A DNA stretch of 52,028 bases from Bacillota bacterium (GTDB lineage: Bacteria > Bacillota > UBA4882 > UBA8346), in NCBI GenBank assembly GCA_003501335.1, contig DNPQ01000567.1:1-52028 (forward strand), written 5' to 3'. The notes beneath the pieces were generated by a model. It saw only the letters and a program-made list of their open reading frames with translations, did not search any database and had not been told where the DNA came from. A program made the translations under genes and the position numbers. Shown here one piece after another: positions 139 through 44,619 of the stretch. Numbering within the stretch: the stretch's first letter is position 1; each line of letters opens with the position of its first letter.

Positions 139-241
139 TTCCCCGTTCAATATACCAATCAAAACTGTATTATAAACCCCCTGTAGCTAGTTGATTGCCC
201 GCTCAGACCAGCACCAGCGATGTATTAAAGCATTCTGACAA

Positions 242-266
242 AGAACCAGGTCAAAAACCTGGTTCT
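242..266. terminator. Hairpin between convergent genes, possibly a bidirectional terminator
   Basis: Perfect 9-bp stem agaaccagg / cctggttct with a 7-nt loop. The flanking T-runs are weak on both strands. Confidence 0.35.
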
Positions 267-328
267 TCATTAATTGGCTTTATTTTCTTAACTTATCGGG
301 GAATATAATACAATCCATCTCTTTCCCC

Positions 329-8561: not shown

Positions 8562-8565
8562 ACTC

Positions 8566-8603
8566 AACAGACTCCTTCGATTAAACGATGGAGTCTGTTT
8601 ATA
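8566..8603 (+). terminator. Rho-independent terminator of the 7382-8561 operon
   Basis: 10-bp stem aacagactcc / ggagtctgtt with a 14-nt loop and a short T-run. Confidence 0.5.
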
Positions 8604-8672
8604 ACCAAATATTAAAAATTATGCCAAACCCATCAAAATTATTTGTATGTATATTATAGACGATTACTTCGT

Positions 8673-9626: not shown

Positions 9627-9659
9627 AATTTACCCTCTAAAAATTTGTAAATGACATAA

Positions 9660-9698
9660 AAACCCCCACCGCTTAAAAAAAACAATGGGGGAAATAAT
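9660..9698 (-). terminator. Probable terminator ending the lysis cassette
   Basis: On the minus strand there is a stem ccccca / tggggg with a 17-nt loop and a T-run, directly after the stop at 9699. Confidence 0.4.
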
Positions 9699-10124
9699 TT
9701 AAAAAATAGCCGCGATTGTTGCAATAGCAGCCGCAATAATCGCTATATTTCTTTCCCATACCAACTTACTTACCTCTTTTTTTAATTCCGTCAATGATTC
9801 CTTGCTGCTCTGTAATAAGTTTTGCAGACTCATTAGCTGCATCTTGGCTTCGTCCGATGATGCTTTTAATTCCGTCAAGTCCTGTGTTAACTTGTCCAAT
9901 TCCGTTTGATATGTTTTTAGTTTGGTCTGAGATTCCGCCAAGTTGTTTTGAGATGTCACCAAGTCGACTGATAGTTGCTGATTGAGATTTGATAATCTGC
10001 TCGTAATCTCGGATAGTCTGGCTAATTCTTGATCCGTCACCTGATAATTTCCATCCGCAAAGCACACCGCCGGTAATACCAATAATAAGGCAAATAGAGC
10101 CAATGATAAGATATTTTTGCACAC
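9699..10124 (-). CDS. Spanin-like envelope protein candidate A (141 aa): signal peptide, coiled coil and C-terminal TM
   Basis: GTG at 10124 follows the holin stop, with aggagg 7 nt upstream. The sequence starts with the signal-like MCKNILSLALFALLLVLPAVCFA, continues with a long heptad-like Q/L/S/E/K-rich segment, and ends in the TM anchor IAIIAAAIATIAAIF. It overlaps candidate B in another frame. Confidence 0.45.
   Translation of the reverse strand: MCKNILSLALFALLLVLPAVCFADGNYQVTDQELARLSEITSRLSNLNQQLSVDLVTSQNNLAESQTKLKTYQTELDKLTQDLTELKASSDEAKMQLMSLQNLLQSSKESLTELKKEVSKLVWERNIAIIAAAIATIAAIF
9766..10122 (-). CDS. Spanin-like envelope protein candidate B (118 aa): N-terminal TM plus a helical domain, i-spanin-like topology
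   Basis: GTG at 10122 is 2 nt from candidate A's start and shares the same SD. It has the TM YLIIGSICLIIGITGGVLCGW, then repeated G-x-IS/IK motifs. It lies entirely inside candidate A in another frame. Confidence 0.45.
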   Translation of the reverse strand: MQKYLIIGSICLIIGITGGVLCGWKLSGDGSRISQTIRDYEQIIKSQSATISRLGDISKQLGGISDQTKNISNGIGQVNTGLDGIKSIIGRSQDAANESAKLITEQQGIIDGIKKRGK

Positions 10125-10352
10125 TTAAGCCCCTCCTTCAGGTTTGCCTGGGCCGCCTTTATTTTCTTGAACCACCCGGTAAATATTAATCAAAAACATT
10201 CCGGCGCCACCGATCGTCAATGCGATAATGATCGGCCCGGCATTAGAACGAAACATAAATATATTTCCGATGGTTACGGCGCTAACAAGTAAACCTATCC
10301 AGATTAATCCGATGATTAAAATTTTAGTATGGGTACGAGTTTTCCACATCAT
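10125..10352 (-). CDS. Holin (two transmembrane domains)
   Basis: 75 aa with two hydrophobic helices and a charged Gly/Pro/Lys tail. Its ATG overlaps the amidase TGA (ATGA), which indicates translational coupling. Confidence 0.6.
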   Translation of the reverse strand: MMWKTRTHTKILIIGLIWIGLLVSAVTIGNIFMFRSNAGPIIIALTIGGAGMFLINIYRVVQENKGGPGKPEGGA

Positions 10353-10891
10353 GATAATTTTTCCCCTTGTCTTATAAATTGACTCTTGACATCAGCATAA
10401 AAAGCATTCGGATCAAATAAATCATTTTTCGGATTCGTTTTTCCATTGCTGAAATCAATCCAACAGAATGGATCGAATGGCCGGTTCAAGGGGTCATATC
10501 TGCTATGCGGTTGCAGATAGTCAGGAGTTGGTTTAAATTTATAGCGCAGAATGATATCTACTATCAAATCCAAAACATTCTGATAAATTTCCTTTGTAAT
10601 AGGTTCACAGGTTTCAATTCCAATTGCGTCTCGATTTGCTCCGACGCAATGATAGGCTTGTTCGTTTTCTGGGATGCACCGAATGATATTCGTAGCGTCC
10701 ACAAGATAATGGGCGGATGCGAAAGTTTTACCGGCTAACGGCGGATGATTCAAACTTTCAAAATAGTCCCGGTTATTTTTTGCCGAAGCTCCCGAATTGC
10801 CCGTCCTATGGATAATAATTTTTTGCGGGCGCAATAAAAAAGCCGGCCTATTTTTGCCGACTGAAATAAGATCTTCTTTAATTGGTATCAT
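10349..10891 (-). CDS. Endolysin: N-acetylmuramoyl-L-alanine amidase (Amidase_2/PGRP, T7-lysozyme-like)
   Basis: Motifs IIIHRTGN…, ASAHYLVD and NRDAIGIETCE fit the amidase_2 fold. ATG at 10891 (MIPIKEDL) is preferred over the ORF-track TTG at 10936, which lies inside the upstream gene. Confidence 0.75.
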   Translation of the reverse strand: MIPIKEDLISVGKNRPAFLLRPQKIIIHRTGNSGASAKNNRDYFESLNHPPLAGKTFASAHYLVDATNIIRCIPENEQAYHCVGANRDAIGIETCEPITKEIYQNVLDLIVDIILRYKFKPTPDYLQPHSRYDPLNRPFDPFCWIDFSNGKTNPKNDLFDPNAFYADVKSQFIRQGEKLS

Positions 10892-10919
10892 TTTATAATT
10901 GTCCTCGCTTTCTTTGTTC

Positions 10920-11216
10920 TTATCTCTTTCCTCCAAACCACGCCCCAGCGGCAGCGGCCAATACTATTCCTCCAATAGTTCCGCCAACTTTGCTAATCCA
11001 AATCCATACCGTTTTTTGACCAGCGGAGGTGTCGTTTTCTGATTCAATACTGTCGATACGTTTATTTATTTCTGGAATAGTTTTATCTTCAAGTTTTGTA
11101 ACCCTGCTATTAGTTTTCTGCACTTGTATTAATACTTGCTCTAATATTCCATTGGTTTTACCTGATTCTTCAATTAATTTAATCGCCCAACTCGGTACCT
11201 CTTCCATTTCCATCAC
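10920..11216 (-). CDS. XhlA-like lysis-associated membrane protein
   Basis: 98 aa with an N-terminal coiled segment (VTKLEDKTIPEINKRIDSIE) and a C-terminal TM (VWIWISKVGGTIGGIVLAAAAGAWF). This architecture matches PBSX XhlA. It is the first gene of the lysis cassette. Confidence 0.5.
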   Translation of the reverse strand: MMEMEEVPSWAIKLIEESGKTNGILEQVLIQVQKTNSRVTKLEDKTIPEINKRIDSIESENDTSAGQKTVWIWISKVGGTIGGIVLAAAAGAWFGGKR

Positions 11217-11312
11217 CGACTTTCAAGGAATTGTTTTTTACGGCCCTTAACGGCTATTGAATCCATAAGTTTTGAATTTACACGCCCCCAGTCGAACAAC
11301 CTATTTACCCAT

Positions 11313-11341
11313 ATTATAGATTTGCTGTGCCGAAGTTTGAA
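11313..11341 (-). promoter_or_regulatory. Sigma-A-type promoter candidate upstream of the lysis cassette
   Basis: On the minus strand the sequence reads TTCAAA (11341-11336), a 17-nt spacer, then TATAAT (11318-11313). Confidence 0.35.
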
Positions 11342-11360
11342 AAAGCCTGAATACGAGCAT

Positions 11361-11388
11361 AAAAAAACCGCCATTGTAGGCGGCGGCC
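11361..11388 (-). terminator. Rho-independent terminator after the lipoprotein gene
   Basis: On the minus strand the sequence reads gccgcc-tacaat-ggcggt followed by tttttttat. Confidence 0.6.
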
Positions 11389-11401
11389 TTCCGAGTTAAC
11401 T

Positions 11402-11851
11402 TTAAGGATTCATTTTAGGAATATTATCTCTTTCCATATAAGCCTTTTCTTGTGGTTGCCCCTGGTCGATTCTTTCTAAAACAAGCCTCATCTTTTTTAT
11501 ATTGCTTTCAGTCGAGTATGATCCATTCATGGCCCAGGCTGTTTCTCCATCCATTTGAACAGTTTTGGTATAATCAGTTTTTTCTAAAGTTTCATTATCA
11601 TAGTTGTAATATTCTTCCCTAACCCTTAATGTACACTGAATATTACTATAGACCGGAAACGACCAAGAATATTTAATAGTTTGTGTCGGATTCATTTGTT
11701 CATCATATTGCCGTTGCTGTCTCCATTCTCCAGTTAAGAAGAAATATTGTTCCTTCACATTATCGTTGTGCTTGATTCCCCTTCCACCGATACAGCCAGA
11801 AAACAACAATGTAACAATAATTAATAAAAACATTAAATTAATTTTTTTCAT
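11402..11851 (-). CDS. Lipoprotein (moron candidate)
   Basis: 149 aa. The signal peptide has a canonical lipobox (LLFSGC). It lies between the tail fibre gene and the lysis cassette and has its own terminator. Confidence 0.65.
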   Translation of the reverse strand: MKKINLMFLLIIVTLLFSGCIGGRGIKHNDNVKEQYFFLTGEWRQQRQYDEQMNPTQTIKYSWSFPVYSNIQCTLRVREEYYNYDNETLEKTDYTKTVQMDGETAWAMNGSYSTESNIKKMRLVLERIDQGQPQEKAYMERDNIPKMNP

Positions 11852-11997
11852 ACTTCACCTTCTTACTAAAAGCGGGAAGGGTATTTAATAATGCCATTTT
11901 AAGCAACTTAAAGGGGGTTACTAAAATGAAAAAAATTCCCCTTCCCGATATTATTATAACATTATAAGATAAATAAATATAATACAAAATTCTAAAT

Positions 11998-13353
11998 TTA
12001 CCATCCTCTGTCAGCTATATACTGAACGTAACTAGCTGTTCCCCCGGTTGATAAAGCGGAAGCCGATCCATAAATCATGAGTTGAGTTCTTGTAATATTG
12101 CCTATTCTCCCAGAAGAAAACTCATTTCTAGTTCCATTACTAGCAGTCATTCCATAACATCTAACCTGAATCAGTGGCGTACCGATAGCATGTGTTGAGG
12201 TGATGGTTCCGGATGCCGTCATTACGTAAGAGGTAATTCTACCATTTATGGCATAAGTAATTATGCTATTTATACCGCTAGTACCTGTAACGCATTCTCC
12301 CACCATCAACCTAACCTTATCTTCCCATGCTGTTCCATTATATCTTTTCATTTTAAATTGACTTAAATCGAACCAATGTTGATCGATTGCTGGTGGAATA
12401 GGAGCAGTAAGAGAATAAATTGTTTCAAGTTCAGTATAACCACCTGTAATAGTATTAGTCGCTACATCTAAATCAATATAAAGTTGTAAAAATGATTTAT
12501 TAGCGGGTAAATTAGTCCATAAAGTGGTTGAGCCAGTAAAGCCAATAATGTAATTTATTTCTCCACACGTTAAATCATAACCAGCGGCTAGATTACAAAT
12601 TACCGGAGCAGTAGGAAGTCCTATTAACATTGCGGATAGACCTGACCACGAAATAAAAATAGCGCCTCCCGAACTGTTATCAACCATACCGCTTATTACA
12701 GTTTGCCTTCTTGAACCTGGTTTATTTGAAACTGAAGTTGCTTTCTTCACTGTTATTTTATCATCCTCAAATGCGGTTGCAATTAAATTATTAATTGTCT
12801 CTGTGGCGTTATTTGCCGCTTGAGTTGCATTTTGGCTCTGTTGAATTAAAGTCGCTTCCATTCCTGCTGATGTATTATCGAGATTTATCAATCCATCTCC
12901 ATTGTTGTTCCAGCCCAATATTTTTCCTGGTATTGGCGAAGGAAAACTGTAACCTTGTCCCTGCTCAGATATGCTTGCAGTAACCGAGCGGGAATTTGTT
13001 TCATCAAGTTCCTGTGCTATTGCCGTTAATTTATCTAATCCCTTTTCCATGTTCTTTGGATCAAAACTTTGAGTCGAAAGCGTTGTTCCCTGCGTTCTTC
13101 CAGTTAAACGGGCAACTGTGATTTTATATCCCGTTGGTCTTGGTTCGCCGGAAGTAGGATATTTAATCCGATTATTATCAATTTCCTTTGTTAAATTCTC
13201 GGTTATTTCTACCGTATCACCGGTTGAAATATTCGTTTCATATAATTTTATATCCGAACCATCGGTAGTGAATATTTCGAACGTATACGGCCAATAGATT
13301 GTAGTTCCGTTGGTCGTATAAACATCTTTTCGATTTGTGTTTTGAACTGTCAT
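11998..13353 (-). CDS. Tail fibre / receptor-binding protein with a T7 gp17-like N-terminal adaptor region
   Basis: 451 aa. The N-terminus (…YTTNGTTIYWPYTFEIF…IKLYETN…YKITVARLTGRTQ…DKLTAIAQELDE) resembles podoviral fibre N-domains. The C-terminal half is rich in Ser, Thr, Gly and Asn. SD ggagggg lies upstream. Confidence 0.6.
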   Translation of the reverse strand: MTVQNTNRKDVYTTNGTTIYWPYTFEIFTTDGSDIKLYETNISTGDTVEITENLTKEIDNNRIKYPTSGEPRPTGYKITVARLTGRTQGTTLSTQSFDPKNMEKGLDKLTAIAQELDETNSRSVTASISEQGQGYSFPSPIPGKILGWNNNGDGLINLDNTSAGMEATLIQQSQNATQAANNATETINNLIATAFEDDKITVKKATSVSNKPGSRRQTVISGMVDNSSGGAIFISWSGLSAMLIGLPTAPVICNLAAGYDLTCGEINYIIGFTGSTTLWTNLPANKSFLQLYIDLDVATNTITGGYTELETIYSLTAPIPPAIDQHWFDLSQFKMKRYNGTAWEDKVRLMVGECVTGTSGINSIITYAINGRITSYVMTASGTITSTHAIGTPLIQVRCYGMTASNGTRNEFSSGRIGNITRTQLMIYGSASALSTGGTASYVQYIADRGW

Positions 13354-13370
13354 TTTTACCCCTCCAATTT

Positions 13371-13396
13371 AAAAAAGGAGCCGCTTTTGCGACCCC
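13371..13396 (-). terminator. Hairpin plus T-run between the giant gene and the tail fibre gene, probably an attenuator
   Basis: On the minus strand the sequence reads ggggtcgc-aaaa-gcggctcc (8 bp including two G·U pairs), then tttttt. It lies immediately after the stop at 13397. Confidence 0.4.
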
Positions 13397-16300
13397 TTAA
13401 CGTCTATTTCCCGGTTTCGGAAATACCAGATCCCGTAAATAGAAATCCTCACCATTTACCATGGAATCATAGATATTGCCAACCGTTGTACTTATTTGTT
13501 TCGATGGATAATGGAGCCAATAACCTCCGGCCTCGAAACCAGACTTTAATAATTTCTCCGGTTTAATGTCTCCCTGGATAGTACCCGGCAACATCCCAAG
13601 GAATTGAGTTGCTTTTGCAAAGGCATCCGCTGAAGGAACTAAATCAACATCGCCCCGGCCAGTCCCAAACATCTTATCTATGGCCGGTGAAATCGCATCA
13701 CGGGCCAATACAAACGCTCCTGCTGGATACTTCAGAATCGTTGACAGCAACCATTTAACAGTGTCGTCGTCATCATCACCGCCACCACCCCACCGGCCGG
13801 ACAATAATTCAGAAACCAGTGCGGGCATGAACCACCAGTAAGCGGCGAATGATATAAGCTGACCGTATTCTCCATTCCGTTTGGCCCGTTGGAATGCCTC
13901 AATCTGGCGGTTCGCATAAACAGAAAAATAGGAATAAAATTGCGTCAATGCCTTGTACCATTCGGAACCGCGCTGGATTCCGGCCATATTTACAATATCG
14001 CCGCTTCCTTGAGTATCCCGTACAACCTGATCGGCGTATCTTATGGCCATTTCATCATTAATCTCTTTGCCGGATTTCATCTGTTGCCCTATATGCTGAT
14101 TGTATGCTTGAATCCATGAAGGCATTGTAACAGCATAGTCAAACAATCCAGTCAAGGCAAAATAAGTATCCTTAATTTCGTCATATGTTCCGCTATCAAT
14201 CATCCGTCTTGTTGCATCCCGAATATCCCGATCCCGGTTGTTCATCCGGTTTTTCATCATTTCTGATTTACCGAATACAAAATTAATTTCTTCACCTGCC
14301 TTTCCTGTCATAGCTTTATAGTAGAAATCTAATACGCCGCCCAAAGTTCTTGTCGGGCCGATCCGTTCCATGACCGGAATAATCCCGGCAAGCTGTGAAA
14401 AGGCGGTCGTAAATTTAATACCCATGTTCACGACCGATGAACCGATCCGGGCCCGTCTTAAAATATTTTCTGCGAAAGCCCACGGCCCAACGGTAGCCAT
14501 ATCCTTGTTATCCCTGGCGATACCTTGCAGCCACGGCCTAAACTGTTTGTAAACCTCATCGCTCATAGTTTCTTTTATCACTTTAGTAACCCGTCCGCTA
14601 TTTAATACCTTGTCCACATCCCGAATTCCATTACTAAATGATACCGAATGGATAACGGTAGCTAAATGATTATCAATAACCGATAAATGTAAATCTAATG
14701 GTCTACCTACTACGGCCTGGACGCGTTGCTTTTCAAATCCTCTACGGGTAGAAGGTTTCAAATAACTAAGGTTAAATAGTTCCTTAATGCTCTCTTCTTC
14801 GGCCTGCCGAAATGCCTTTTCGTTTTTACTCGGATCATAAACTACCGGGTAATAACCGCCGCGATAATCACCATATTTTGTATTGACAATGCTTGCCTCA
14901 ATCTTTATTGGCTCCACTCCGGTCCGGGTCTTTTTGTCCTGGGCGATTTGCGGCCAGTATGAATCAATGAAATCCCAGACATTTTGGACAAAGTCCCAAT
15001 CATTTTTATCCAAAACCTGATCAAAGATATCTTGAAACATATCTTCTGAAGCTAAATTTTCCTGATTCTCCGTGTCGTAGTAGGAATCAACCAGCCGCTG
15101 CCGGTTGCCTTCATTCCCCCAATTCAAGGCCATAGCCAAGACATTTTCCTTGGTGAGCCCGCGGGGAAATAAATCTTCAGTCCCTTTTATGCTTATTTTT
15201 TTTCTGGCTAATTGGCTGGTATCATTGCCATAATAGTTCCGGATAATATCGGTTAACTTTTCTCCGGCTTCCCGGCGCATTTTATATTCCTTATCCAATC
15301 CGCGGAGCATCGGGAGAACAATATAATGCCACGCTGGACCTTGATCTTTGTAACCATCCAGCGCCCTTGCAATCCATTCTACTTTTTGATGAGAAGCAAC
15401 AAATCCCCGGCCCCAATGTTTTGTCATTTCCCCCGGCGCTTTATTGGGATCATAATTTTGCGGGAACAATCTTTTATTCTGTTGCATACTTCCAACCATA
15501 TCTTCAATAATCAAATCAAGGTTTCGCTGTTGTTCATCCGTAAGCAGCTTCTTTTCATTCCGGGCGACAGTGTCAATATTTTTAATCGCATCAACCACGT
15601 CCCGGAGTTCTGAAAGGGTTAAATCCTTATATGGCTTTTGGATTGTCTCATCAGCGATAAAATCAGGAATTGCCGCCTCATCATATTCTTCCCGGGCCTT
15701 TATCCAATCAGCTAAAGGTTCTTCCTGGGTTACGGCATTTGGACCCTGCAAACCGAACCGACCAAGAATATGATCGATTTGACCCAGATGCTCTTTGGCA
15801 ATTTCCGGGCGTTTATTCTTTTGCCATTTTTCGATATATTTAAACGCCCTGTCAACCTCTTGCCGGACCTTTAGCGCCTCCATTGCAAGGGCATGATTCA
15901 GCATTCTTTGATCGGCATATTGGGCGGCAGTCCTGATATCCTTTTTAGCATATGACTGGGATTCTTTAACCGCCGCATTCCGTTCCGCTGCAAAGTATGC
16001 GGTTGCCGCCGCCGCTTCCCGGTAGTTTTTATCTGCTATCGTTGTTTTGGCGTATCTTCTTGCAGCTTCCGCCGCAATCCTGGCCCGTTGCATATTCCAC
16101 TGCTTTTTGTTTGCCTTGGCATTCTCCTGATGAATCAGATCCGTCAACATTTCCCGTTCCATGGCTAATGCACTGAGTTGTTCATCATTATGGAGTGCTC
16201 TTTCGGCCATAAATTGCAGTTCCTGGGGAGAATCCTTCAATTCCCCAAACTGGGACATATGAACCGCCAGCCGATCATTAACCTCCTCTGAAAAATTTCT

Positions 16301-19300
16301 AGCGCCCATGATATCTCTTGCCAGCTGATCGCCTGATGAATAACCAAACGCATCGGCAATTGCTTCCCACCTGGCGATACCTTCATTAGTTATTTCCCCA
16401 TTTTGAAGATACCGTGAGGCCAAATCCTTAACATCCTTTTGCATCCCGAAAGTCTGTTTAATGGCTTCCATGACTTGATAAATGGGCGACTTGGCAACTT
16501 CTTCTTCGATAATGGGCGTAACCCGGTCCCGTTCGGCTTGAAGCAGTTCTTCATGACTTGGTTTTAGCTCGTCCATTTGGGGCTTTAAAAGAGCCTCCAC
16601 TGCCATTTCGTGGGCCTTGGTTTTAAGGTCCCGAAGCTTTTCGAGAGCATCCGAAGTGGCACTTTTCTCATCGATGAAGTCCATTAAATAACCGTCCGCT
16701 GCTTCCCGTTCCTGGATTTCATCCTCGGTCGCCAGCATTCGGTCCATAACGCCCCGGACCTCATCCGACAGTTGAACATTCAAACCGGATACACTTTTGT
16801 AAATCCGAGTTAACCAACGCCGGAAGGCGGCAAAGGCTTTCCTTAGACCTTCGCTGGGCGCTTTCCCCTCCATCAAATAAGACTCAAATCCTCGGGCAAA
16901 TTGTTCCTGCTGGTCAGTTGTAAGCTTGTCCTGATCGCCCTTAATCGCTAGCCAATTCGATAGTGTCTTCCAGTCCTTCATATAGTTTTCGTCAGCCTGT
17001 CCGGACTTTACATATTGAAAGGTGTCCTCTAAAAACAAGTGCGATGATTCATGTAAAAACGAGCTGGCATCAGCTTTTGAAAACAAAGTAATAATCGATT
17101 GGTCCGGATTAATTTGAACATTGGCTCGAGCATCCTGATAATATTTATTAATGACTTTTACGGCATTGTTGTCAAAAATAACATAATTATGAGATCCTTC
17201 ACCGTCTTTTCTGCTTGTAGCATCTAAATACTTGATTCCTGGAATGTCATGAAGGTTTAAATATTTTGAGGCTTTTTCTTTGGCTTCCTCTTCAAATAAA
17301 TCTTTTTCATTGATATAATAATCAACTAATTTGGTATATAAATCCTCACCGGTCATTGAATCATAATTTTTAAAAAGAGAGGGATATTCAGAAGCAATAC
17401 TTTGGATTCCTTTTTTTACTTTATCGCTTTGATCAGTTAAAGATTTATCCCAATCCAAAAAATCTTCTTCGTTTGGTGTTAATGATACTTCAAACAATTT
17501 ACCTTTGCTTGATTCTGGTGATTTAACATTATCTTTTATAAATTTTATTAACGAATCATCGATATCATAATGCTGTTTTATATATTCTTTTGAAGTATCA
17601 ACTACTTCAGCCAAAAAAGCTCCTAAATGTCCACCTAAATCCCCATTATCGCTGTTCCTGTTCCGTTCATATGTACTAATTAATTTATTAGCTTCATCAA
17701 AATGTTTATCATAAAAATCATCAAAATACTTTTCGTAATCTGGGAAATTGTGATCTTGGCTTAGTTCCTCTCTATACCAATCGGCTATTTCCTTTTTCCC
17801 CGCAAAATACAACCCCCAACCATAAGCCTGCTGTCCTTCACCACTTCCAATATGATCGAGCATAAACTTTTCAAAGTCATGGGGTGAACCATGCCAGGCG
17901 TTAGTCTGATATAATAAAGAACCCGGCTCTTTTGATTGAGTCGGGTTTATTGATTCTGAAGATCTTCTTTCGGGATTATTCTGACGTGAGTTATTTTCCC
18001 GAATTTCCCCTCCGCCTGCAATTTCGTAATGTAATCCGGGAGGTTGGTCCCCGCGGCTCGCAGGTCGAATACCTCCGGAGATTTGTTCTCGTTTGTTGTT
18101 TTCAAGGGCTGCGTCTGCTGATCTAAGTTCTTCGCCATGTCCGACACCGAAGGTCACTCCTTTTAACTTAATTTTTCGTCCGTTATTATCTTCTACTTCG
18201 ATTATACTATTGTCTAGAGCATTTTGCAATTTCTGGGATTTCGCTTGTGCTTCTTCCAATGAATTCGATTGAAACGTAAACTCATCCCCGCCAAGACGGA
18301 ACACAGGGCCAATATCAGCTTTTTGAGTCAAATCTGAAATTGCTTTTAGAACTTCATCCCCGGCTTCGTGCCCCATAGAATCATTAATGAACTTGAAGCC
18401 ATTTAGATCAAACATCGTTTGAAACGGTAACCTCGTTTCAGGATTAGACGTGGCCATTTCATAAGCTGCCCGATTATATAATCCGGTCAAACGGTCACTA
18501 TAAACAGCCTTTACCAGTTCCTCCGGTGTCATCTCTTTTACTTTGGCTTTGAGCTGATCATCAAAATTTATCTGTTGAGGAACTTTGCTTTGGTCAAAAG
18601 AAAAACCCTGGTTTTCACCAAGGTTCTTATTTAGTCCTGATTTTTTTTTCGCCTCGGATTTATTACCTCCGAGGTTTACCATTTCGCGTACATTTCCGGT
18701 ATCCGAATCATACGTTATAATACTGTCATAGCCTTCTTTTTTAATAGCGGCAGTTAGTTTCTTTCCGACCAAGCCCTTATACTTTTGGCTTAAATCAGTT
18801 TTCCATCCGCCATGCCCAGTAGTTTTATATTCCATGATAAGAGGATTTTCAAAACTGATGTTACCATATTCATAATTAGGTAAAGCAAACCCAGGAATCG
18901 GATTATCATTGAACCCCATGTATTCTCCGGTAGGCTCGATGTCTTGCCCAAATTGTGATCCCATATAAGGTGATTTTTCAAGATTACGATAATAAGGGAT
19001 GGTTTCTCCGTTTTTAATTCTTTCGATTTGAGTCATGTCAAGGTTATTCGATGATTGATTCAAATTTCCTTCTTGTCCTAACCTGTTATTACCCATTAAT
19101 CGATCAATCTTGCCTTTTAAATCATTTATCCCTTTAATTGTGTTTTCTAGTTGAATAAACTCATTGTTTCCGGGGATATTGTCCGTATCTTCTGAATATC
19201 CTTCTTTAAGTTGTTTAATAGCCAATTCCCGCAATTCTCTTTGCGAAGGTTTACGACCATTCTTGGTATAAAAATCCCGATACCATTTAGGGTTATTGCT

Positions 19301-21658
19301 CTGCCTCCCAATCCGATTAATCACATTACCCAATGCATCAGTAATTAAAGAACCTTGTTGAACTCCTTTTCCGCCAGATTCATTCAAGTATTTAATCTGT
19401 TCATTCAGGATTTTGTTATATTGTTCCTGGATTCCTTTTTGAATCTGTTCGACGGGCTTGTTTTGAGCGGCCAGAGTTTCAATAAAAGCTCTTTCGTTAT
19501 CATTTAGTTTTCCAAGTATATCGGGGCTGACTTGATTTGGCATAAAATCAACATTATAAATCTCCGGTTGCATCATCCCCATATATAATTCGAGTGGGTT
19601 TACTTGCCGCCGGGATCCTTCGGCTACCATCCGGGAAGCAAATACCTGGGCCGAATATTTAGCCTCTCTTTCACTTCGGCCGGCAGAAACCAATTTATCT
19701 TTGATATCGTTATAAATCGATTCATAATTGGTATTCTGTATCTTAGCTTGCTTTTGTTCTTCTTCAATGGCCTTTTTAACCCGTTCTTCTTCGACTGCAG
19801 CCTGATTCAAAGTAAGACCATCTGCACTAAATTTGATATCGCCTTCGAGTTTTTTATATATCGGAGTCTTGGCGGTCTTTTCCAGCCAAGTTGCATAGGG
19901 AATAGAAAGAGGCTTCCCGGTCTGGGTAGCCTCTTGTAATTGGTCGTTGATTCCTAATTCCTTGGCAACCTCCTGAACAACCAACCCCGGGTCGGTCCCT
20001 TCCGGAGCCATCGACTGCATGAGGGCAACAAAGGGTTCAGGATCAATATAAATGTTTTCGAGTTTTCCCCCTTGGGTACTGGCTTCCACAAGAGTGCGCC
20101 AGGCTTCCGGCAATCTATCTAGATACTTAGACTTTGCGGCCATCTCGCCGGTTTTCTTATAAATATCCGCATTATCTTTGGCTTCATTAATAGCAGCGTT
20201 GGTTTCGGCGTGGGGAGTCTCTGGCTGCGCCAAATTATTTAACGCAATAACCTGACTTCGGTTCGGGGTCCTTCCAGTCTCAATAATAGCCTGCGCCATT
20301 TGGTGGGCATGACTTGAAAAAGGCAATCCCATGGCATGCATTACCGTAGTCATGGCAAAAGCGCCATAAGCGTCTGATTCCGCTTGGGGTACGCTAATAA
20401 CGCCGTTATCTCCAAAGAAAGGCATATCCGGTTGGTAAAGAGTTTTTTTGACCGCCTGAGTTAATGGGGTTGTAATAACTTCTTGGACTGTTTCTTCCGC
20501 AGTATTCTTTAAAAAATCCCATCCGGCTTTTCCAAACTCTTTGACAATATTCTTAATCCCAGCCTGTACAATTTCCTTCGAGCCGGTCATAGCGATATAG
20601 TCCCGGACAAAAGGCAGCTCCGTAACCATTTCAACACTACCGCCATATAAACCATAAGCGGCCTGTTGAGATACGCTAGCCCCCTCTTGTTTCGCTTGTT
20701 CAGCATATTGACCGACAGACTGCACGCCAAAGGGAATCATATCTTTTATTGATTTCAGTAATAAAGAAGCTTCCCCGCCTAATGTTGGAGCCTCTGCCGC
20801 CCCTCCGGTCATAGCACCCATCAGCACAGTGGGCACCATATTGACAGTTGCCGAACCACCTATATAGGCTAATTTCTTTACACCTTTCATTGCCTGGCTT
20901 TCTTGTTCGGCAGTATCCATAACGGCTTGACTTTCAGCGCTCCGTTCATTCAACCATTTAACGACACTGTTATTTGATCCAAAAATTGCTTCAATAGGCA
21001 AACGACCTAAACCATACATCCCCTGATTAAATTGGGCGGCCCCGGAATAGGCCATCTGTTTCACTGTTTCCCACCAAGAAGGTTGCCTGGAACCAATCGT
21101 TGTATTTTTATATTTATAGTCTGGCCCAATAGTAGAACCGGGATATACTTGTTTGATATTCTGAAAGTGCTGCTCTTGTGTCGCTAATTCCGGAATCAAA
21201 TCTTTTGCAGTGGCCATATTCTTGGGATCGCTCAAAAACTGTGAGAGCGTCGGATACTGTTTTGCAATGCCATCCCAATCTATGGAAGAACTCTTTTTAT
21301 TATTGAACGCCTCCGCTACCTGCTCCCGCATATCAGGATCAGTCATAAAATATTCAGCGGGAATGCTTAAATCATTGGACATCTTAACATCTTTAACCGC
21401 CTGGTCTGGCGTAGTCTGTTCAGCAACCATAGCGGATTGCCGCAAACTATTGGCAGTATCTTCACCCATATTTCTGACTTCGGGGGGAATATAATTATTG
21501 CTATCCGGTTTGATCGCAAATTCATCTAATACTTCATTAGTTTCTGCCCCGGTTAAAGGTGCCGATTTAGATGCAGTGCTGGGGCTAACATAACTATTTG
21601 TCCCAAACTCTTTATTGAATTGGTCCTGTTCATCTTCTGTTAAGGGAATACCCGGCAT
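13397..21658 (-). CDS. Giant internal-virion/ejection 'polyvalent' protein (~2750 aa) with GGDEF, ART-like and HExxH modules
   Basis: One uninterrupted ORF in the T7 gp16 position. ATG at 21658 (SD gaggtg 6 nt upstream) is preferred to the track's GTG at 21667. It contains hydrophobic segments, a GGDEF domain, a PARP-like HGS/GLYFA block, an HESSH motif and long helical regions. Confidence 0.85.
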   Translation of the reverse strand: MPGIPLTEDEQDQFNKEFGTNSYVSPSTASKSAPLTGAETNEVLDEFAIKPDSNNYIPPEVRNMGEDTANSLRQSAMVAEQTTPDQAVKDVKMSNDLSIPAEYFMTDPDMREQVAEAFNNKKSSSIDWDGIAKQYPTLSQFLSDPKNMATAKDLIPELATQEQHFQNIKQVYPGSTIGPDYKYKNTTIGSRQPSWWETVKQMAYSGAAQFNQGMYGLGRLPIEAIFGSNNSVVKWLNERSAESQAVMDTAEQESQAMKGVKKLAYIGGSATVNMVPTVLMGAMTGGAAEAPTLGGEASLLLKSIKDMIPFGVQSVGQYAEQAKQEGASVSQQAAYGLYGGSVEMVTELPFVRDYIAMTGSKEIVQAGIKNIVKEFGKAGWDFLKNTAEETVQEVITTPLTQAVKKTLYQPDMPFFGDNGVISVPQAESDAYGAFAMTTVMHAMGLPFSSHAHQMAQAIIETGRTPNRSQVIALNNLAQPETPHAETNAAINEAKDNADIYKKTGEMAAKSKYLDRLPEAWRTLVEASTQGGKLENIYIDPEPFVALMQSMAPEGTDPGLVVQEVAKELGINDQLQEATQTGKPLSIPYATWLEKTAKTPIYKKLEGDIKFSADGLTLNQAAVEEERVKKAIEEEQKQAKIQNTNYESIYNDIKDKLVSAGRSEREAKYSAQVFASRMVAEGSRRQVNPLELYMGMMQPEIYNVDFMPNQVSPDILGKLNDNERAFIETLAAQNKPVEQIQKGIQEQYNKILNEQIKYLNESGGKGVQQGSLITDALGNVINRIGRQSNNPKWYRDFYTKNGRKPSQRELRELAIKQLKEGYSEDTDNIPGNNEFIQLENTIKGINDLKGKIDRLMGNNRLGQEGNLNQSSNNLDMTQIERIKNGETIPYYRNLEKSPYMGSQFGQDIEPTGEYMGFNDNPIPGFALPNYEYGNISFENPLIMEYKTTGHGGWKTDLSQKYKGLVGKKLTAAIKKEGYDSIITYDSDTGNVREMVNLGGNKSEAKKKSGLNKNLGENQGFSFDQSKVPQQINFDDQLKAKVKEMTPEELVKAVYSDRLTGLYNRAAYEMATSNPETRLPFQTMFDLNGFKFINDSMGHEAGDEVLKAISDLTQKADIGPVFRLGGDEFTFQSNSLEEAQAKSQKLQNALDNSIIEVEDNNGRKIKLKGVTFGVGHGEELRSADAALENNKREQISGGIRPASRGDQPPGLHYEIAGGGEIRENNSRQNNPERRSSESINPTQSKEPGSLLYQTNAWHGSPHDFEKFMLDHIGSGEGQQAYGWGLYFAGKKEIADWYREELSQDHNFPDYEKYFDDFYDKHFDEANKLISTYERNRNSDNGDLGGHLGAFLAEVVDTSKEYIKQHYDIDDSLIKFIKDNVKSPESSKGKLFEVSLTPNEEDFLDWDKSLTDQSDKVKKGIQSIASEYPSLFKNYDSMTGEDLYTKLVDYYINEKDLFEEEAKEKASKYLNLHDIPGIKYLDATSRKDGEGSHNYVIFDNNAVKVINKYYQDARANVQINPDQSIITLFSKADASSFLHESSHLFLEDTFQYVKSGQADENYMKDWKTLSNWLAIKGDQDKLTTDQQEQFARGFESYLMEGKAPSEGLRKAFAAFRRWLTRIYKSVSGLNVQLSDEVRGVMDRMLATEDEIQEREAADGYLMDFIDEKSATSDALEKLRDLKTKAHEMAVEALLKPQMDELKPSHEELLQAERDRVTPIIEEEVAKSPIYQVMEAIKQTFGMQKDVKDLASRYLQNGEITNEGIARWEAIADAFGYSSGDQLARDIMGARNFSEEVNDRLAVHMSQFGELKDSPQELQFMAERALHNDEQLSALAMEREMLTDLIHQENAKANKKQWNMQRARIAAEAARRYAKTTIADKNYREAAAATAYFAAERNAAVKESQSYAKKDIRTAAQYADQRMLNHALAMEALKVRQEVDRAFKYIEKWQKNKRPEIAKEHLGQIDHILGRFGLQGPNAVTQEEPLADWIKAREEYDEAAIPDFIADETIQKPYKDLTLSELRDVVDAIKNIDTVARNEKKLLTDEQQRNLDLIIEDMVGSMQQNKRLFPQNYDPNKAPGEMTKHWGRGFVASHQKVEWIARALDGYKDQGPAWHYIVLPMLRGLDKEYKMRREAGEKLTDIIRNYYGNDTSQLARKKISIKGTEDLFPRGLTKENVLAMALNWGNEGNRQRLVDSYYDTENQENLASEDMFQDIFDQVLDKNDWDFVQNVWDFIDSYWPQIAQDKKTRTGVEPIKIEASIVNTKYGDYRGGYYPVVYDPSKNEKAFRQAEEESIKELFNLSYLKPSTRRGFEKQRVQAVVGRPLDLHLSVIDNHLATVIHSVSFSNGIRDVDKVLNSGRVTKVIKETMSDEVYKQFRPWLQGIARDNKDMATVGPWAFAENILRRARIGSSVVNMGIKFTTAFSQLAGIIPVMERIGPTRTLGGVLDFYYKAMTGKAGEEINFVFGKSEMMKNRMNNRDRDIRDATRRMIDSGTYDEIKDTYFALTGLFDYAVTMPSWIQAYNQHIGQQMKSGKEINDEMAIRYADQVVRDTQGSGDIVNMAGIQRGSEWYKALTQFYSYFSVYANRQIEAFQRAKRNGEYGQLISFAAYWWFMPALVSELLSGRWGGGGDDDDDTVKWLLSTILKYPAGAFVLARDAISPAIDKMFGTGRGDVDLVPSADAFAKATQFLGMLPGTIQGDIKPEKLLKSGFEAGGYWLHYPSKQISTTVGNIYDSMVNGEDFYLRDLVFPKPGNRR

Positions 21659-21671
21659 TCTTATCACCTCA

Positions 21672-23297
21672 TTATGGGTTATATTTCATTAAGTTACCGT
21701 TTTCGTCTCGGTAAACCCAGGCACTAAGTTTTTTCGACCATTGAGCATCCGGGGGAATATTAAACCTGTGATCTGTTTTATTGCCTCCTAATGGCCCTAA
21801 TTTCCATTTACCAGTTATGGTCTTAGTTAAAGCATCCTGTAGTATTTTGTCCTTTTCTTCCGATGTTGGGGGACGTTTATTCTTAAATTGAAAATCGCCT
21901 GCAACCCCTGAAACATAGTCCCAAAACTTAGCCTGCTGGTCACTGTCTTTAATACCACTCTTTTTCAATAATGCCGCCCCATCTGTGGCTAAATTAAATT
22001 TGTTGTAGGGTGAAGTACCGACCGTCCCCATAGAATCCATGGCCTTCCAAAATGTTTTCATATCGTCGAAACTGATCCGGCTTCCATATTCCTTAAGCAT
22101 CTCTTGTCTATTGGCAATTTTTCCGGCTTTGATTTTATCGTATAGTTCATACCAGGCTGCCGGATCCGTTTTTATCCCCTGGCCCGCTTTGGTGAGTTCC
22201 GGATAAAGCTGCTTGGCAATTGTGAGCAAACTTGTTTTTACCTGTAATTGGTCAGCGGTCTTTTGCGGCAGGGTATTAATGTATTTTACTGCCGTCAACC
22301 CGTTCCCGGCTCCTTCAACATTCTTATAATAATAATCAATTTGGGTATTAATAGTAGCCCGTTTTTCTTGTTCACGCAAATTATAGGTCGAATGATAGGT
22401 ATCCAGTAATTCTTTTTGCTTTTCCGGCGTTAAACTAAGATTTTTGATATACTTATCACCCGAGGCTAGGTTTTCGCCATATTTTTTGAGTAAATCATCT
22501 GATATTGTTGTTTGTTTGGCACCCCAGTCACCGGCATCAATTTTAGTTTTAATGGTATCGGCGACATCACCCGGCAGATAATCTTTGACTTTATCAAATA
22601 ACCCCTGGGCTCCCTTATAATCTTCCTTTTGGAACAATGATTCAAAGGCCTTTAAAGCCGCTGCGCCGGAAGACGCCTGTTGATTAAATTTAATACTATC
22701 CGGTGTATCTCCGTTATAATCCCCCGTTACCTTGACAATGGCGTTGATGTTTGCAATGGAATCTACCAACGAATACGGGTTACTTGCAGCATCTTTGATT
22801 TTCTGATTGATATTATCCTGCGTGGTTTGTTCCCGGCTGGCCTGCCCTTGCTGCGCCTCATGCCTGACTACCATATTCATATTGGAATCGTACATGCTTT
22901 TATAAAGCTGATCAAACTGGGTTTGTTGCTCTTCCCCCGGTACCATCCGGGAATATTTTTGCCGGATCTGTTCAATCTGATCTTTAAAATCTTGGGTTAC
23001 GCCGTTGGCGTTTGCTAAAGTCCGGTTCATAATTCCCACTGGACGGCCATTTTCATCAGTGTCCTGACTATATAAAACGCCATCAATTTCTTGCCGCATT
23101 TGAGTTTCGGCTTCAAGAACTTTCTGAGTATCTTTCTGTTGTTGGAGCTCCTTTGCTCGTTGTTGAAGAAGCTGACCAATATTTGAAGTCGTTTGCCCTA
23201 ATTGCTGGTTTGCTTGGGCGATATTTACACCAAAGGCATCCGGATTCGGATTAATTGGTTGGATTTGTGCTTGACGTTCATAAACAGGTACTTGCAT
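21672..23297 (-). CDS. Internal virion protein (T7 gp15 position)
   Basis: About 541 aa, Gln-rich and helical, lying between the gp14-like gene and the giant gene. ATG at 23297 with SD aaggggtga is preferred to GTG at 23306. Confidence 0.45.
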   Translation of the reverse strand: MQVPVYERQAQIQPINPNPDAFGVNIAQANQQLGQTTSNIGQLLQQRAKELQQQKDTQKVLEAETQMRQEIDGVLYSQDTDENGRPVGIMNRTLANANGVTQDFKDQIEQIRQKYSRMVPGEEQQTQFDQLYKSMYDSNMNMVVRHEAQQGQASREQTTQDNINQKIKDAASNPYSLVDSIANINAIVKVTGDYNGDTPDSIKFNQQASSGAAALKAFESLFQKEDYKGAQGLFDKVKDYLPGDVADTIKTKIDAGDWGAKQTTISDDLLKKYGENLASGDKYIKNLSLTPEKQKELLDTYHSTYNLREQEKRATINTQIDYYYKNVEGAGNGLTAVKYINTLPQKTADQLQVKTSLLTIAKQLYPELTKAGQGIKTDPAAWYELYDKIKAGKIANRQEMLKEYGSRISFDDMKTFWKAMDSMGTVGTSPYNKFNLATDGAALLKKSGIKDSDQQAKFWDYVSGVAGDFQFKNKRPPTSEEKDKILQDALTKTITGKWKLGPLGGNKTDHRFNIPPDAQWSKKLSAWVYRDENGNLMKYNP

Positions 23298-24602: not shown

Positions 24603-26582
24603 TTACCCTCCCATCGTCACATCCGGAATAATTGCCAAAATTGTCACAGGAAGCGGATCACTTTGTCTAAAACAAATTCTGCCACCTTTGGTATAACCGC
24701 CATCTGCTAATGATTCATCATATTCCCCAGAATAAAGCGGTATTGGAGTTCCACTTGGCTGGCCTGAATATTGATTGACCTCTTTCATCTTATCAAAATT
24801 GGCTCCGATGTATCCGCCTCGGCTATTTTCAAAAATAAGTGTCACATTTGATATTTTTACATTCCGGGATTGAATTGTTCCATTATTTGTTGCGAAATCG
24901 ACATTTAAAGTTTCGAAGTCGGAAACATAAGGTAATCCAATGCAAACCTTAGAAGCTTCTCTTGATAAAGTTATCTTTCCATTGGTAACCATCAATCCTT
25001 TTTCTACATAACCATCCGCTAAGACGTTAACTGTTTTGCCTTCTAAATGATTAAGCCCGGATATTTCATCTGCTGGAACTCCTTTATATTTCAGCCAACA
25101 ATCCAGGAAGGTACAATCTGCTGGGTCTGTCGATGGCAGGCGATCCGGTAATCGTTCAACATAGCGTTTACCATCACGGTTAATGATGAACCATACTTCA
25201 TCATATCCATTGCCCGGAATAGTACACACTGATTCATAAAGGCCATCGGTTTGTATCGGTGTGCAACCTAAAATCTGCTGTTCTTTCAGATAAGTCATTG
25301 CCACCATGGAACCATCATTGAGAATAATCCAAATAATATGATCCGGTTCCTGCTGATAAGCCATTTCAACAACCGTTTTCCCTTTAAATAAATGATTTGC
25401 AAATATCGATATATCATCTCCTATATAGCCATCCGATTCATAGGAATATCCGATATCTTGCACAATAGTACCCATTGGCTGAACATATACAGCCCGGTTT
25501 TTAATGACAACAGGATCGGCAAGAGAACATCCGGAATGACCATCACACCGCTGCCTTAAAGATGTTGGTTTAATAATCCCATCCGACGAACCCGGCCCTA
25601 CATGCCATTCGGAATCTGAAGTCAAAGCCATAACATCGCCAAGGTCAACCATGTTTCTAATAGCATTGACCTTCCGTGAAGTCAAATAATTTGTAATGCT
25701 ATCAGTATCTTGTAAAGTGCCATGACTAATAAAATTATTATAGTCACCGGTTGTCGACATCCAATACCCTTGTGGGTCCGATGGTGTATTTCCAAATACT
25801 AATTTATCCTGGCAAAACATAACCGATGAAGGCCATCCCCGATAACCGGACCATGCTCCTTCCGCCCAATCATCTGTCACGGTTGTAGCTGCTAATGTTG
25901 AATATACCGTGGCACTCACAACCGTACTGCTTGTTACGGCAGTTATTTTGACACAGCCATATTGATCACCGTTATTATCGATATGGGTTCCAATTCTCCA
26001 CCAAGATCCAACGTGACCCGGATCAAAAATAGCCGATGAAGCTGTTAACGTGATGTTGCCGGTTGCAGCGCTGGGGGTTATTGTAGTGCTGGTGGCGTTG
26101 GCTCTCCGGTAGGGACCATTCTTAAATTCATACAAACCAATTGACCAGTTGGTATGTCCCGATCTCGTCAGTGTCCGGGGTGCATATTTTGGATGGACTA
26201 AAAAAAGCACGTCGGCCGATTGAGTAAACTTGATAGATGATAAATCGGCTTCGACAAAAGGTGACGTTATTTCGTATGGAACATTATTTAAAAGAATCTG
26301 GCCGCCATCCATGAAAAACCGGAAATACTGATCCCCAAACTCTATTGTATATGCTTGTTCTATTGAAAACTCAAAAGGAATAATCCTTGACCTTTTTGAA
26401 TTGTCTTTTGTTGCTGCAATGAATTCAGTTCCCGGCCTATTAGAGGTACCCCCGTGGGGATGAACAATCCAATTCTTTAATGCTTTGCAAGCAGTGGCAT
26501 ATCGCTGCAAATCAGTCCGATAACTGAGAGAAGGGGATATTTCACCCCCGGTAAAAGAAGGCTGTAATAAATCCATCCCCAT
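24603..26582 (-). CDS. Tail tubular protein B / nozzle (T7 gp12-like)
   Basis: 659 aa. The N-terminus (LLQPSFTGGEISPSLSYRTDLQRYATACKALKNWIVHPHGGTSNRPGTEF) is typical of podoviral nozzle proteins. It follows the gp11-like gene. Confidence 0.6.
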   Translation of the reverse strand: MGMDLLQPSFTGGEISPSLSYRTDLQRYATACKALKNWIVHPHGGTSNRPGTEFIAATKDNSKRSRIIPFEFSIEQAYTIEFGDQYFRFFMDGGQILLNNVPYEITSPFVEADLSSIKFTQSADVLFLVHPKYAPRTLTRSGHTNWSIGLYEFKNGPYRRANATSTTITPSAATGNITLTASSAIFDPGHVGSWWRIGTHIDNNGDQYGCVKITAVTSSTVVSATVYSTLAATTVTDDWAEGAWSGYRGWPSSVMFCQDKLVFGNTPSDPQGYWMSTTGDYNNFISHGTLQDTDSITNYLTSRKVNAIRNMVDLGDVMALTSDSEWHVGPGSSDGIIKPTSLRQRCDGHSGCSLADPVVIKNRAVYVQPMGTIVQDIGYSYESDGYIGDDISIFANHLFKGKTVVEMAYQQEPDHIIWIILNDGSMVAMTYLKEQQILGCTPIQTDGLYESVCTIPGNGYDEVWFIINRDGKRYVERLPDRLPSTDPADCTFLDCWLKYKGVPADEISGLNHLEGKTVNVLADGYVEKGLMVTNGKITLSREASKVCIGLPYVSDFETLNVDFATNNGTIQSRNVKISNVTLIFENSRGGYIGANFDKMKEVNQYSGQPSGTPIPLYSGEYDESLADGGYTKGGRICFRQSDPLPVTILAIIPDVTMGG

Positions 26583-44602: not shown

Positions 44603-44619
44603 AATTAATAAAAATTATT

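Follow-up and report, generated by a model that had tools for sequence, protein, structure and literature searches.

A putative Bbp10-type polyvalent ejection protein with a variable effector cassette in a prophage from a Bacillota bacterium

The window analysed here is a stretch of 52,028 nucleotides from a Bacillota bacterium (GTDB lineage Bacteria; Bacillota; UBA4882; UBA8346; GenBank assembly GCA_003501335.1, contig DNPQ01000567.1, positions 1 to 52,028). It contains one giant open reading frame (ORF) on the minus strand within a set of phage structural genes. Probably its product is the largest of the internal virion (ejection) proteins of a short-tailed prophage related to BPP-1 and epsilon15, that is a polyvalent protein of the Bbp10 type in the position of internal virion protein (IVP) D, the gp16 of T7. 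The protein is built from a conserved N-terminal block (N-block), a variable cassette of effector-type domains, a zincin-like module and an all-helical C-terminal core (C-core). The locus appears to be a clear natural example of the largest ejection protein of short-tailed phages serving as a delivery vehicle, with a fixed backbone and a slot for an effector cassette. The positions of all features are given in Table 1.

Relationship to Bbp10 of phage BPP-1

The closest link to a cultured phage is provided by BPP-1 Bbp10 (NP_958679; 2,052 aa). Its gene occupies the same slot: tubular tail B, an internal virion protein and a gene of 720 aa in the IVP-C position precede it, and the tail fibre follows. 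Bbp10 starts with an LPD22 domain as well, carries its cargo domain between the N-block and the zincin module, and has the same HExxH...FARGFE.YL.EGKAPS module. Residues ~1404-2732 of the giant protein align to it with 28% identity over ~1,330 aa (E 2e-95), and a profile of the C-core matches Bbp10 at E 6e-272. The match of the giant protein to phrog_9880 is of similar strength (E 6e-273), and the C-terminal half also aligns with its counterparts in podophages of Caulobacter, Pseudomonas, Xanthomonas and Vibrio. The differences concern the cargo, which in Bbp10 is a PBECR1 nuclease domain instead of an unannotated domain of 120 aa, a GGDEF domain and an ADP-ribosyltransferase (ART)-like module, the length, as Bbp10 is 700 aa shorter, and the host, which is proteobacterial and does not belong to the Bacillota. 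As LPD22, a cargo domain (PBECR1), this zincin module and this C-core all occur in Bbp10, the backbone LPD22, cargo, zincin module and C-core is already present in a classic cultured phage.

Bbp10 was listed as a homologue of IVP-D (T7 gp16) on the basis of comparisons between hidden Markov models (HMM-HMM) (Hardies et al. 2016). The assignment of the giant protein to IVP-D rests on this literature link together with the homology to the C-terminal half of Bbp10. It agrees with the gene order. The structural module comprises, in this order, terminase, portal, scaffold, major capsid, a Bbp16-like cement protein, tubular tails A and B, the genes in the gp13, gp14 and gp15 positions, the giant ORF and the tail fibre, and the order around the giant ORF is the same as in BPP-1, epsilon15 and T7. 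A preliminary description, made from the sequence alone, had already placed the ORF in the gp16 slot of a T7-like tail module, after the gp13-, gp14- and gp15-position genes and before the tail fibre, and this placement is confirmed. Its estimate of about twice the size of T7 gp16 (1,318 aa) is also correct.

The protein also fits the concept of polyvalent proteins, as had been proposed. In one prophage ORF of 2,753 aa a GGDEF domain, an ART-PolyVal-type module and an HExxH zincin module are combined, so that at least two unrelated activities are predicted. LPD22 is detected above the Pfam cut-off and the relatives have LPD3, LPD23, PBECR1 and PBECR5, and the gene is located among the late virion genes, between the internal virion genes and the tail fibre. 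Polyvalent proteins were defined by Iyer et al. (2017), who reported GGDEF as an infrequent component and described a prophage protein of Acetonema longum, WP_004096050.1, which combines GGDEF, a zincin-like metallopeptidase and ART. As far as can be judged from that description, to which our comparison is limited, both are single prophage polypeptides from Bacillota hosts with these three elements, and the Acetonema protein differs by an additional SWI2/SNF2 ATPase and a DNA adenine methylase. One of our homologues (P0069, GGDEF plus helicase domains) resembles this type and has no BLAST match to the C-core. The earlier impression that the domain combination is new is therefore overstated; it is not new in kind, as GGDEF, zincin and ART were described together in 2017 and the backbone is found in Bbp10.

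Gene start and integrity

The ORF between 13397 and 21667 on the minus strand is uninterrupted and comprises 2,756 codons when counted from a GTG. While this extent and the reading frame, as given in the preliminary description, are correct, the start is not. The preceding gene ends with a TAA at 21672-21674, which is followed by GAGGTGA and, five bases on, by an ATG at 21658. The GTG at 21667 belongs to the Shine-Dalgarno sequence and was rejected as start codon; therefore translation is assigned to start at ATG 21658, which results in a product of 2,753 aa. The motifs that had been cited from the ORF were all found in their places, with KLAYIGGSATV at residue 265, GGDEF at 1126, AWHGS at 1257, HESSH at 1539 and, near the C-terminus, FAAYWWFMPALV at 2607 and GGGGDDDDD at 2627.

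An ORF of this size could also result from a chimeric assembly or from overlooked frameshifts by which several genes were fused, and the sequence does come from metagenome-type contigs; moreover, one relative (L003) did not translate cleanly over its tblastn coordinates. However, the identical product of 2,753 aa (P0001) is present in NCBI, JGI and Logan on several contigs of different size, the longest with 55,684 bp. In each of the four closest relatives the gene is likewise one collinear ORF (2,430-2,812 aa), and the cultured phage BPP-1 encodes Bbp10 in one piece. The 8.26 kb are free of stops and begin with a strong Shine-Dalgarno sequence and an ATG. The giant ORF is one real gene. An assembly or frameshift artefact is very unlikely in view of the identical public records and the collinear relatives, and we regard a fusion of several genes as extremely improbable.

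In L003, a relative from a Bacillota metagenome-assembled genome (MAG), the match to the giant gene (10001-17299, plus strand) is not free of stops, which may reflect a frameshift, a pseudogene or a mere offset of the coordinates.

The conserved backbone

The division into blocks is based on BLAST comparisons with 77 giant homologues of 2,000-4,000 aa. In the closest relatives, P0002 and P0004, the N-block is 79-82% and the C-core 55-56% identical to the giant protein, and parts of the N-block between residues ~300 and 715 are still recognisable in distant family members. LPD22 is the N-terminal signature of most members of the family, Bbp10 among them. It is followed by a moderately hydrophobic segment rich in Gly, Ala, Ser and Thr (residues ~262-300), the character of which is conserved throughout the family as far as Bbp10. 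By analogy to residues 224-278 of N4 gp50 this segment is a candidate for a membrane-interacting element. The hydrophobic and Gly/Ala-rich stretches had been suggested to form a conduit across the envelope; they are indeed present, but with a Kyte-Doolittle maximum of 1.42 in a 19-residue window they are only moderately hydrophobic.

The zincin-like module is characterized by H1539, E1540 and H1543, which are invariant in all 30 homologues that cover the HExxH motif, including Bbp10. In the AlphaFold model the motif lies on a predicted helix (residues 1534-1554) preceded by two strands, and E1595, as downstream acidic ligand, is conserved within the FE.YL part of the strongly conserved FARGFE.YL.EGKAPS motif. 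Similarities outside of the family are weak. The module of the giant protein itself has no Pfam hit, a profile search of the PDB resulted in a match to Spartan/SprT at E 0.044, and single family members weakly match Pfam SprT-like (E 0.0014) and Reprolysin_4 (E 0.009). As HExxH is invariant across the family as far as Bbp10, the module belongs to the backbone and not to the cargo, and is the first element of the conserved C-terminal part, outside of the variable effector block. The three enzyme-like modules GGDEF, ART-like and HExxH had been described as one cluster at residues ~1050-1620. All three exist, but HExxH is not part of the effector block.

The C-core had been regarded as very long helical spacers. 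This view is not supported, because this part is a conserved and confidently folded helical core. The AlphaFold2 (AF2) model of residues 1701-2756 consists almost entirely of helices (mean predicted local distance difference test score (pLDDT) 81, predicted template modelling score (pTM) 0.68). A search in BFVD revealed 96 matches to the C-core at E<=1e-3, all of which are C-terminal chunks of giant viral proteins; several of them carry names such as polyvalent, ART-PolyVal, nuclease, MuF-C or 'crystallin motif'. Near its end two moderately hydrophobic helices flank a G4D5 tract, of which the Asp run is kept in the consensus of the family.

The cargo cassette

Residues ~896-1510 form a variable cassette which is set off by low-complexity linkers. 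It contains the unannotated domain of ~120 aa, the GGDEF domain and the ART-like module.

The GGDEF domain proposed in the preliminary description scores clearly above the curated cut-offs of both Pfam (PF00990, 56-60 bits versus 23.8) and TIGRFAM (TIGR00254, 58.4 versus 37.4). Phmmer and profile searches of the PDB, which yielded exclusively GGDEF structures apart from the weak Spartan hit, align it with solved active cyclases. The residues D1087, K1092, N1095, D1096, H1100, D1104 and R1124 are present, which we take to be metal- and guanine-binding positions as in PleD, and the Asn/Asp pair suggests that the substrate is GTP. An RxxD inhibitory site was not detected at the usual spacing, where the sequence upstream of the motif reads QKADIGPVFRL, and the cargo lacks a sensor domain. 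A homologue search with residues 735-1240 was dominated by cellular GGDEF proteins, of which the top-scoring ones are only ~33-36% identical, and was uninformative for the flanking segments. Stand-alone GGDEF proteins of the Pseudomonas/Bordetella phages MP1412, PaSz-4, FP1 and CN1 (phrog_5594) are 31-33% identical to residues ~1036-1216. They are encoded by separate genes and are not part of a protein in the gp16 slot. In the literature found there is no demonstrated case of a diguanylate cyclase delivered by a virion.

The ART-like module, which had been recognised before as well, can be assigned to ART-PolyVal by transitive homology. Fourteen fragments which align to it with ~30% identity over ~260 aa match PF18760, the best at E 4e-8. 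The putative catalytic residues are H1259 (conserved in 18 of 20 sequences), Y1287 (19/20) and D1499 (18/20). In the AlphaFold model (mean pLDDT 77) the first two are located inside predicted strands and D1499 just past one. This arrangement agrees with the H-Y-D configuration given for the ART-PolyVal clade (Iyer et al. 2017). An ART that is packaged in the head, injected together with the DNA and modifies the host RNA polymerase is known from T4 Alt (as summarised by Iyer et al. 2017); in contrast to the module described here Alt is a myovirus protein of the R-S-E-type clade, not of H-Y-D, and does not form part of any polyvalent protein.

The domain of ~120 aa at residues 886-1006 is matched by no profile of Pfam, PHROG, NCBIfam or the PDB, and none of the 77 homologues contains a counterpart. 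However, an exhaustive phmmer search revealed 917 representative clusters at E<=1e-3. The domain occurs as stand-alone proteins of 110-160 aa and inside proteins of 700-5,000 aa, and these larger proteins also carry LPD38, ART-PolyVal or PBECR5. Residues G, W, K, L, G, D and E are invariant in the alignment. It is a separate and widespread domain without family assignment, and as such is a concrete target for structural and functional work. Two other assignments were tried and rejected for residues 880-1050, a divergent LPD3, as found at the same position in P0002 and P0004, and a second ART; in hhalign comparisons no relation was seen, and the domain is likewise unrelated to the ART/zincin profile.

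The cassette differs even between close relatives. At its position P0002 and P0004 carry LPD3, or LPD3 and LPD23, and P0003 carries Zeta_toxin and ART. The G+C content (GC) is 0.373 in the cassette and 0.318 in the ART module, compared with 0.43-0.46 in the backbone and a mean of 0.427 for the gene. The break in identity between close relatives together with the drop in GC shows that the cargo is exchanged by recombination between fixed parts of the backbone, which at this locus can be seen directly as these two features. The low GC of the ART module (17138-17920, minus strand) suggests a recent acquisition from a source of lower GC.

Are the enzyme-like modules indeed enzymes, or are they degenerate or purely structural parts of an unusually long ejection or scaffold protein? 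This second possibility would be in line with the sub-threshold Pfam hit of the ART module, the low confidence at which its insert of ~190 aa is modelled, and a GGDEF domain which is at most ~36% identical to the best cellular proteins and has two secondary positions substituted. We consider it quite improbable, because the signatures of all three modules are present (GGDEF with D1087, N1095 and D1104; H1259, Y1287 and D1499; H1539, E1540 and H1543), and because close relatives rapidly swap the cassette, each time for other domains of the effector type (Zeta toxin, LPD3, LPD23, PBECR nucleases), which argues for functional selection.

Proposed mode of action and its evaluation

Family membership, synteny, modular exchange and intact catalytic signatures are established, and from these a mode of action can be proposed in which packaging, injection and enzyme activity are taken by analogy from T7 and especially from N4 gp50. 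A few copies of the protein would enter the core of the capsid together with the gp14- and gp15-position proteins, assisted by the gp13 homologue. At infection its loosely linked domains would pass through the tail like 'beads on a string', and its hydrophobic elements may take part in forming or anchoring the DNA conduit at its membrane end. The cargo would then refold in the cytoplasm ahead of any phage gene expression. There the GGDEF domain, lacking a sensor and an inhibitory site, could make cyclic di-GMP (c-di-GMP) from GTP once two copies pair, and the ART module could ADP-ribosylate host targets. The zincin module may cut the polypeptide and so free the cargo; release by cleavage was proposed for the peptidases of polyvalent proteins (Iyer et al. 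2017). If this is true, a synthase for a second messenger and an enzyme that modifies proteins are delivered into the cell before the phage genes are expressed. The backbone could then serve as a chassis to deliver chosen enzymes, with BPP-1 as a cultured relative for testing.

An experimental precedent is N4 gp50, the virion RNA polymerase of 3,500 aa, which is also a giant ejection protein of loosely linked domains that brings an enzyme into the cell. Hardies et al. (2016) put its C-terminal domain in the IVP-D family and named the N4 virion RNA polymerase as an example of the cytoplasm-bound domains that IVPs host. It has been shown that gp50 leaves the virion as loosely connected domains; helices that span the membrane lie in its N-terminal domain (residues 224-278, comparable to the Gly/Ala-rich residues 262-300 of the giant protein), and its enzyme refolds in the cytoplasm. 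The cargo differs, being an RNA polymerase, and no homology is detectable by hhalign. T7 gp16 is like the giant protein predominantly helical, and both are found in the same slot as the product of the largest gene after tubular tail B and IVP-A, -B and -C. In contrast, T7 gp16 possesses an N-terminal SLT domain (E 2e-31 in the same type of scan), which is missing in the giant protein, where cytoplasmic-type enzymes are found instead; members of the extended IVP-D family do not all possess an SLT domain. For PhiXacm4-11 a gp35 of 2,300 aa in the gp16 slot, likewise without PDB match, is treated as gp16 analogue in a preprint from 2026.

A number of results weigh against the interpretation as an ejection protein with active cargo. 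In a hmmsearch the link to T7 gp16 reaches 5.9 bits, which is not significant, and the hhalign comparison with this protein is collinear over 824 columns but has an E of 0.024 and a probability of 2%. Taken over T7 gp16, epsilon15 gp17 and N4 gp50, the hhalign E-values are 0.024, 0.045 and 0.23 with probabilities of at most 2% (for N4 gp50 E 0.02-0.23, at most 2.4%), again collinear. When both AF2 models, including that of the C-core, were compared with the PDB by Foldseek, no match reached E<=1e-3. The top hit of the ART model, a homologue of diphtheria toxin (7ri3), has an E of 0.55, and RES toxins are also among the non-significant hits (target-normalised TM-score 0.45-0.48). The ART module itself reaches 20-21 bits with PF18760 versus a cut-off of 31.2, and covers the N-terminal 37 profile positions only. 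The GGDEF domain is shorter than its profile and, by comparison with PleD, deviates at two sites: the second Asp of the usual DxD is replaced by N1089, and Q1185/I1186 occupy the position of the usual GR in the C-terminal phosphate-binding motif. The hydrophobic segments fall below the usual thresholds for transmembrane helices. Finally, no proteomic proof for a Bbp10-type protein in virions was found in the accessible literature.

The profile and structure searches domain by domain, as recommended in the preliminary description, were thus successful for LPD22 and GGDEF; for ART and zincin the matches are below threshold or weak, and the C-core has no match in the PDB. Direct homology to T7 gp16, T7 gp15, epsilon15 gp15, gp16 and gp17, and N4 gp50 was tried with hmmsearch and hhalign, and nothing significant resulted.

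The main alternative is that the giant protein is a passenger packaged in the head, like DarB of phage P1 or T4 Alt. The channel would then be built solely by the 187-aa and 544-aa proteins, and the C-core would be a module for packaging or targeting. Many giant viral polyvalent proteins, some of them labelled as from myo- and siphoviruses, do end in the fold of the C-core, as one would expect for a generic module for incorporation into virions. The lack of significant similarity to T7 gp16 and the weakness of the hydrophobic segments point in the same direction, and in the N4 model from 2026 the RNA polymerase and C-terminal domains of gp50 refold in the cytoplasm, while the membrane complex is assigned to gp51 and the N-terminal domain of gp50. 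However, the gene lies exactly in the IVP-D slot next to counterparts of gp13, gp14 and gp15, and no other gene comes into question as the largest IVP. Bbp10 was placed in the IVP-D family by Hardies et al., and the conserved Gly-rich element of the N-block as well as the C-terminal hydrophobic hairpin with its Asp run suggest a contact with the membrane. A passenger function appears unlikely to us, and a Bbp10-type ejection protein remains the preferred explanation.

A more far-reaching version of the ejection model is rather doubtful in our own estimation. As a sensor-less cyclase borne by the virion, the protein could cause a burst of c-di-GMP or another cyclic dinucleotide at genome entry, before phage genes are expressed. 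Such a burst might redirect the host, or jam or decoy cyclic-nucleotide immunity, including guards of the Panoptes type, a guard-type immunity that monitors its own nucleotide pool. In this scenario the neighbouring 120-aa domain would represent a further family of injected effectors.

Genomic context and host

Table 1. Features of the giant gene and of its surroundings in the window (aa, residues of the giant protein unless lengths are given)
Feature	Position	Strand	Remarks
Whole gene, 2,753-aa polyvalent protein of the IVP-D slot, probably an internal virion protein	13397..21658	minus	ATG start through TAA stop
Shine-Dalgarno GAGGTGA	21664..21670	minus	5 nt upstream of ATG; sequence read directly
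Conserved N-block, aa 4 to ~895	18983..21658	minus	79-82% identical in the closest relatives P0002, P0004
LPD22, aa 76-174	21146..21442	minus	Pfam E 1e-11, 45 bits versus cut-off 28.6
Gly/Ala/Ser/Thr-rich, moderately hydrophobic segment, aa ~262-300	20768..20884	minus	character conserved family-wide, out to Bbp10
Unannotated ~120-aa cargo domain, aa 886-1006	18650..19012	minus	FGQDIEPxGxY ... GWK ... GYDGIIT ... EIVNL
GGDEF (diguanylate-cyclase-type) domain, aa 1056-1194	18086..18502	minus	motif at 1126-1130
ART-PolyVal-type ADP-ribosyltransferase-like module, aa ~1250-1510	17138..17920	minus	H1259, Y1287, D1499; ~190-aa helical insert
Zincin-like HExxH module, aa ~1515-1650	16718..17125	minus	H1539, E1540, H1543, then FARGFE(1595)SYLMEGKAPS
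All-helical C-core, aa 1651-2756	13400..16717	minus	homologous to Bbp10 C-terminal half and phrog_9880
G4D5 tract (aa 2627-2635) with a moderately hydrophobic helix on either side (aa 2604-2622; aa 2637-2655)	13703..13858	minus	
gp15-position protein, 544 aa	21672..23306	minus	no recognisable muralytic domain
gp14-position internal virion protein, 187 aa	23310..23873	minus	phrog_418, E 7e-21
T7 gp13 (IVP-A) homologue, 152 aa	23876..24334	minus	Pfam Phage_T7_Gp13 31.6 bits versus cut-off 25; phrog_308
Tubular-tail-B-like gene	24603-26582		within structural module
Tubular-tail-A-like gene	26587-27180		within structural module
Tail-fibre-like gene	11998..13353	minus	directly downstream of the giant ORF; PHROGs for tail, tail fibre and tail spike matched by the N-terminal 120 aa
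IrrE/M78-peptidase and zinc-ribbon protein	43601-44602		prophage end
Integrase	44673-45998		prophage end, right of the phage genes

Beyond the integrase host genes follow, which encode a PSP1/YaaT protein, DNA polymerase III delta', a DUF327 protein, thymidylate kinase and an Orn/Lys/Arg decarboxylase. This order (PSP1/YaaT-HolB-DUF327-thymidylate kinase-decarboxylase) is one that we take to be typical of Bacillota. GC climbs to 0.44-0.46 toward this end (43601-52028). The integrase followed by host genes identifies the element as an integrated prophage, and it is one of a BPP-1/epsilon15-type podovirus in an uncultured lineage of the Bacillota. Relatives of the giant protein come from a Bacillota MAG and from a prophage whose flanking genes are of the spore-former type. 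The host HolB is closest to proteins from Bacillota MAGs; among named species Hydrogenispora ethanolica comes nearest, with 55% identity.

T7-style ejection modules are uncommon in Bacillota hosts. No literature was found on an outer membrane in the Hydrogenispora ethanolica lineage. The lysis cassette of the prophage contains two ORFs (9699-10124 and 9766-10122, both minus strand), which occupy nearly the same DNA in different frames and adjoin holin-like and amidase genes. The ORF of 141 aa starts with a signal- or lipoprotein-like sequence, contains a coiled coil and ends in a hydrophobic helix, a topology like that of unimolecular spanins; the one of 118 aa has an N-terminal hydrophobic helix and a coiled coil. 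A PHROG search of these ORFs for spanins resulted in coiled-coil noise only. If either of them is a spanin, the host would possess an outer membrane.

The absence of a lysozyme or transglycosylase motif, noted earlier as a difference to T7 gp16, was confirmed, and neither the giant ORF nor its neighbours matched such families. Elsewhere in the IVP block no muralytic domain was detected either, i.e. in the 544-, 187- and 152-aa proteins or the tail fibre. The 544-aa protein matches just the non-catalytic N-terminal part of an 'endolysin' PHROG. In other phages the transglycosylase sits in one protein of the ejection block, namely in BPP-1 Bbp11, epsilon15 gp15 or T7 gp16. BPP-1 differs accordingly from the prophage described here, as Bbp11 bears this domain and the neighbouring 544-aa protein does not.

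Further observations

Right after the stop codon of the giant gene and before the Shine-Dalgarno sequence of the tail fibre gene, a G+C-rich hairpin of 10 bp followed by a T run (13375-13398, minus strand) resembles a terminator. The total of terminator-like sites in this region is no greater than in shuffled sequence.

The GC minimum of the window (0.287) is located at positions 8001-10000. In this stretch, beyond the lysis genes, an ORF of 317 aa (8673-9626, minus strand) is found, the sole match of which is phrog_1762, a group of unknown function. It may be an accessory (moron) or defence gene.

The prophage that carries P0004 (L002) encodes a Tad2-like protein (141-635, plus strand) just upstream of the scaffold and capsid genes. 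Tad2 is an anti-Thoeris family.

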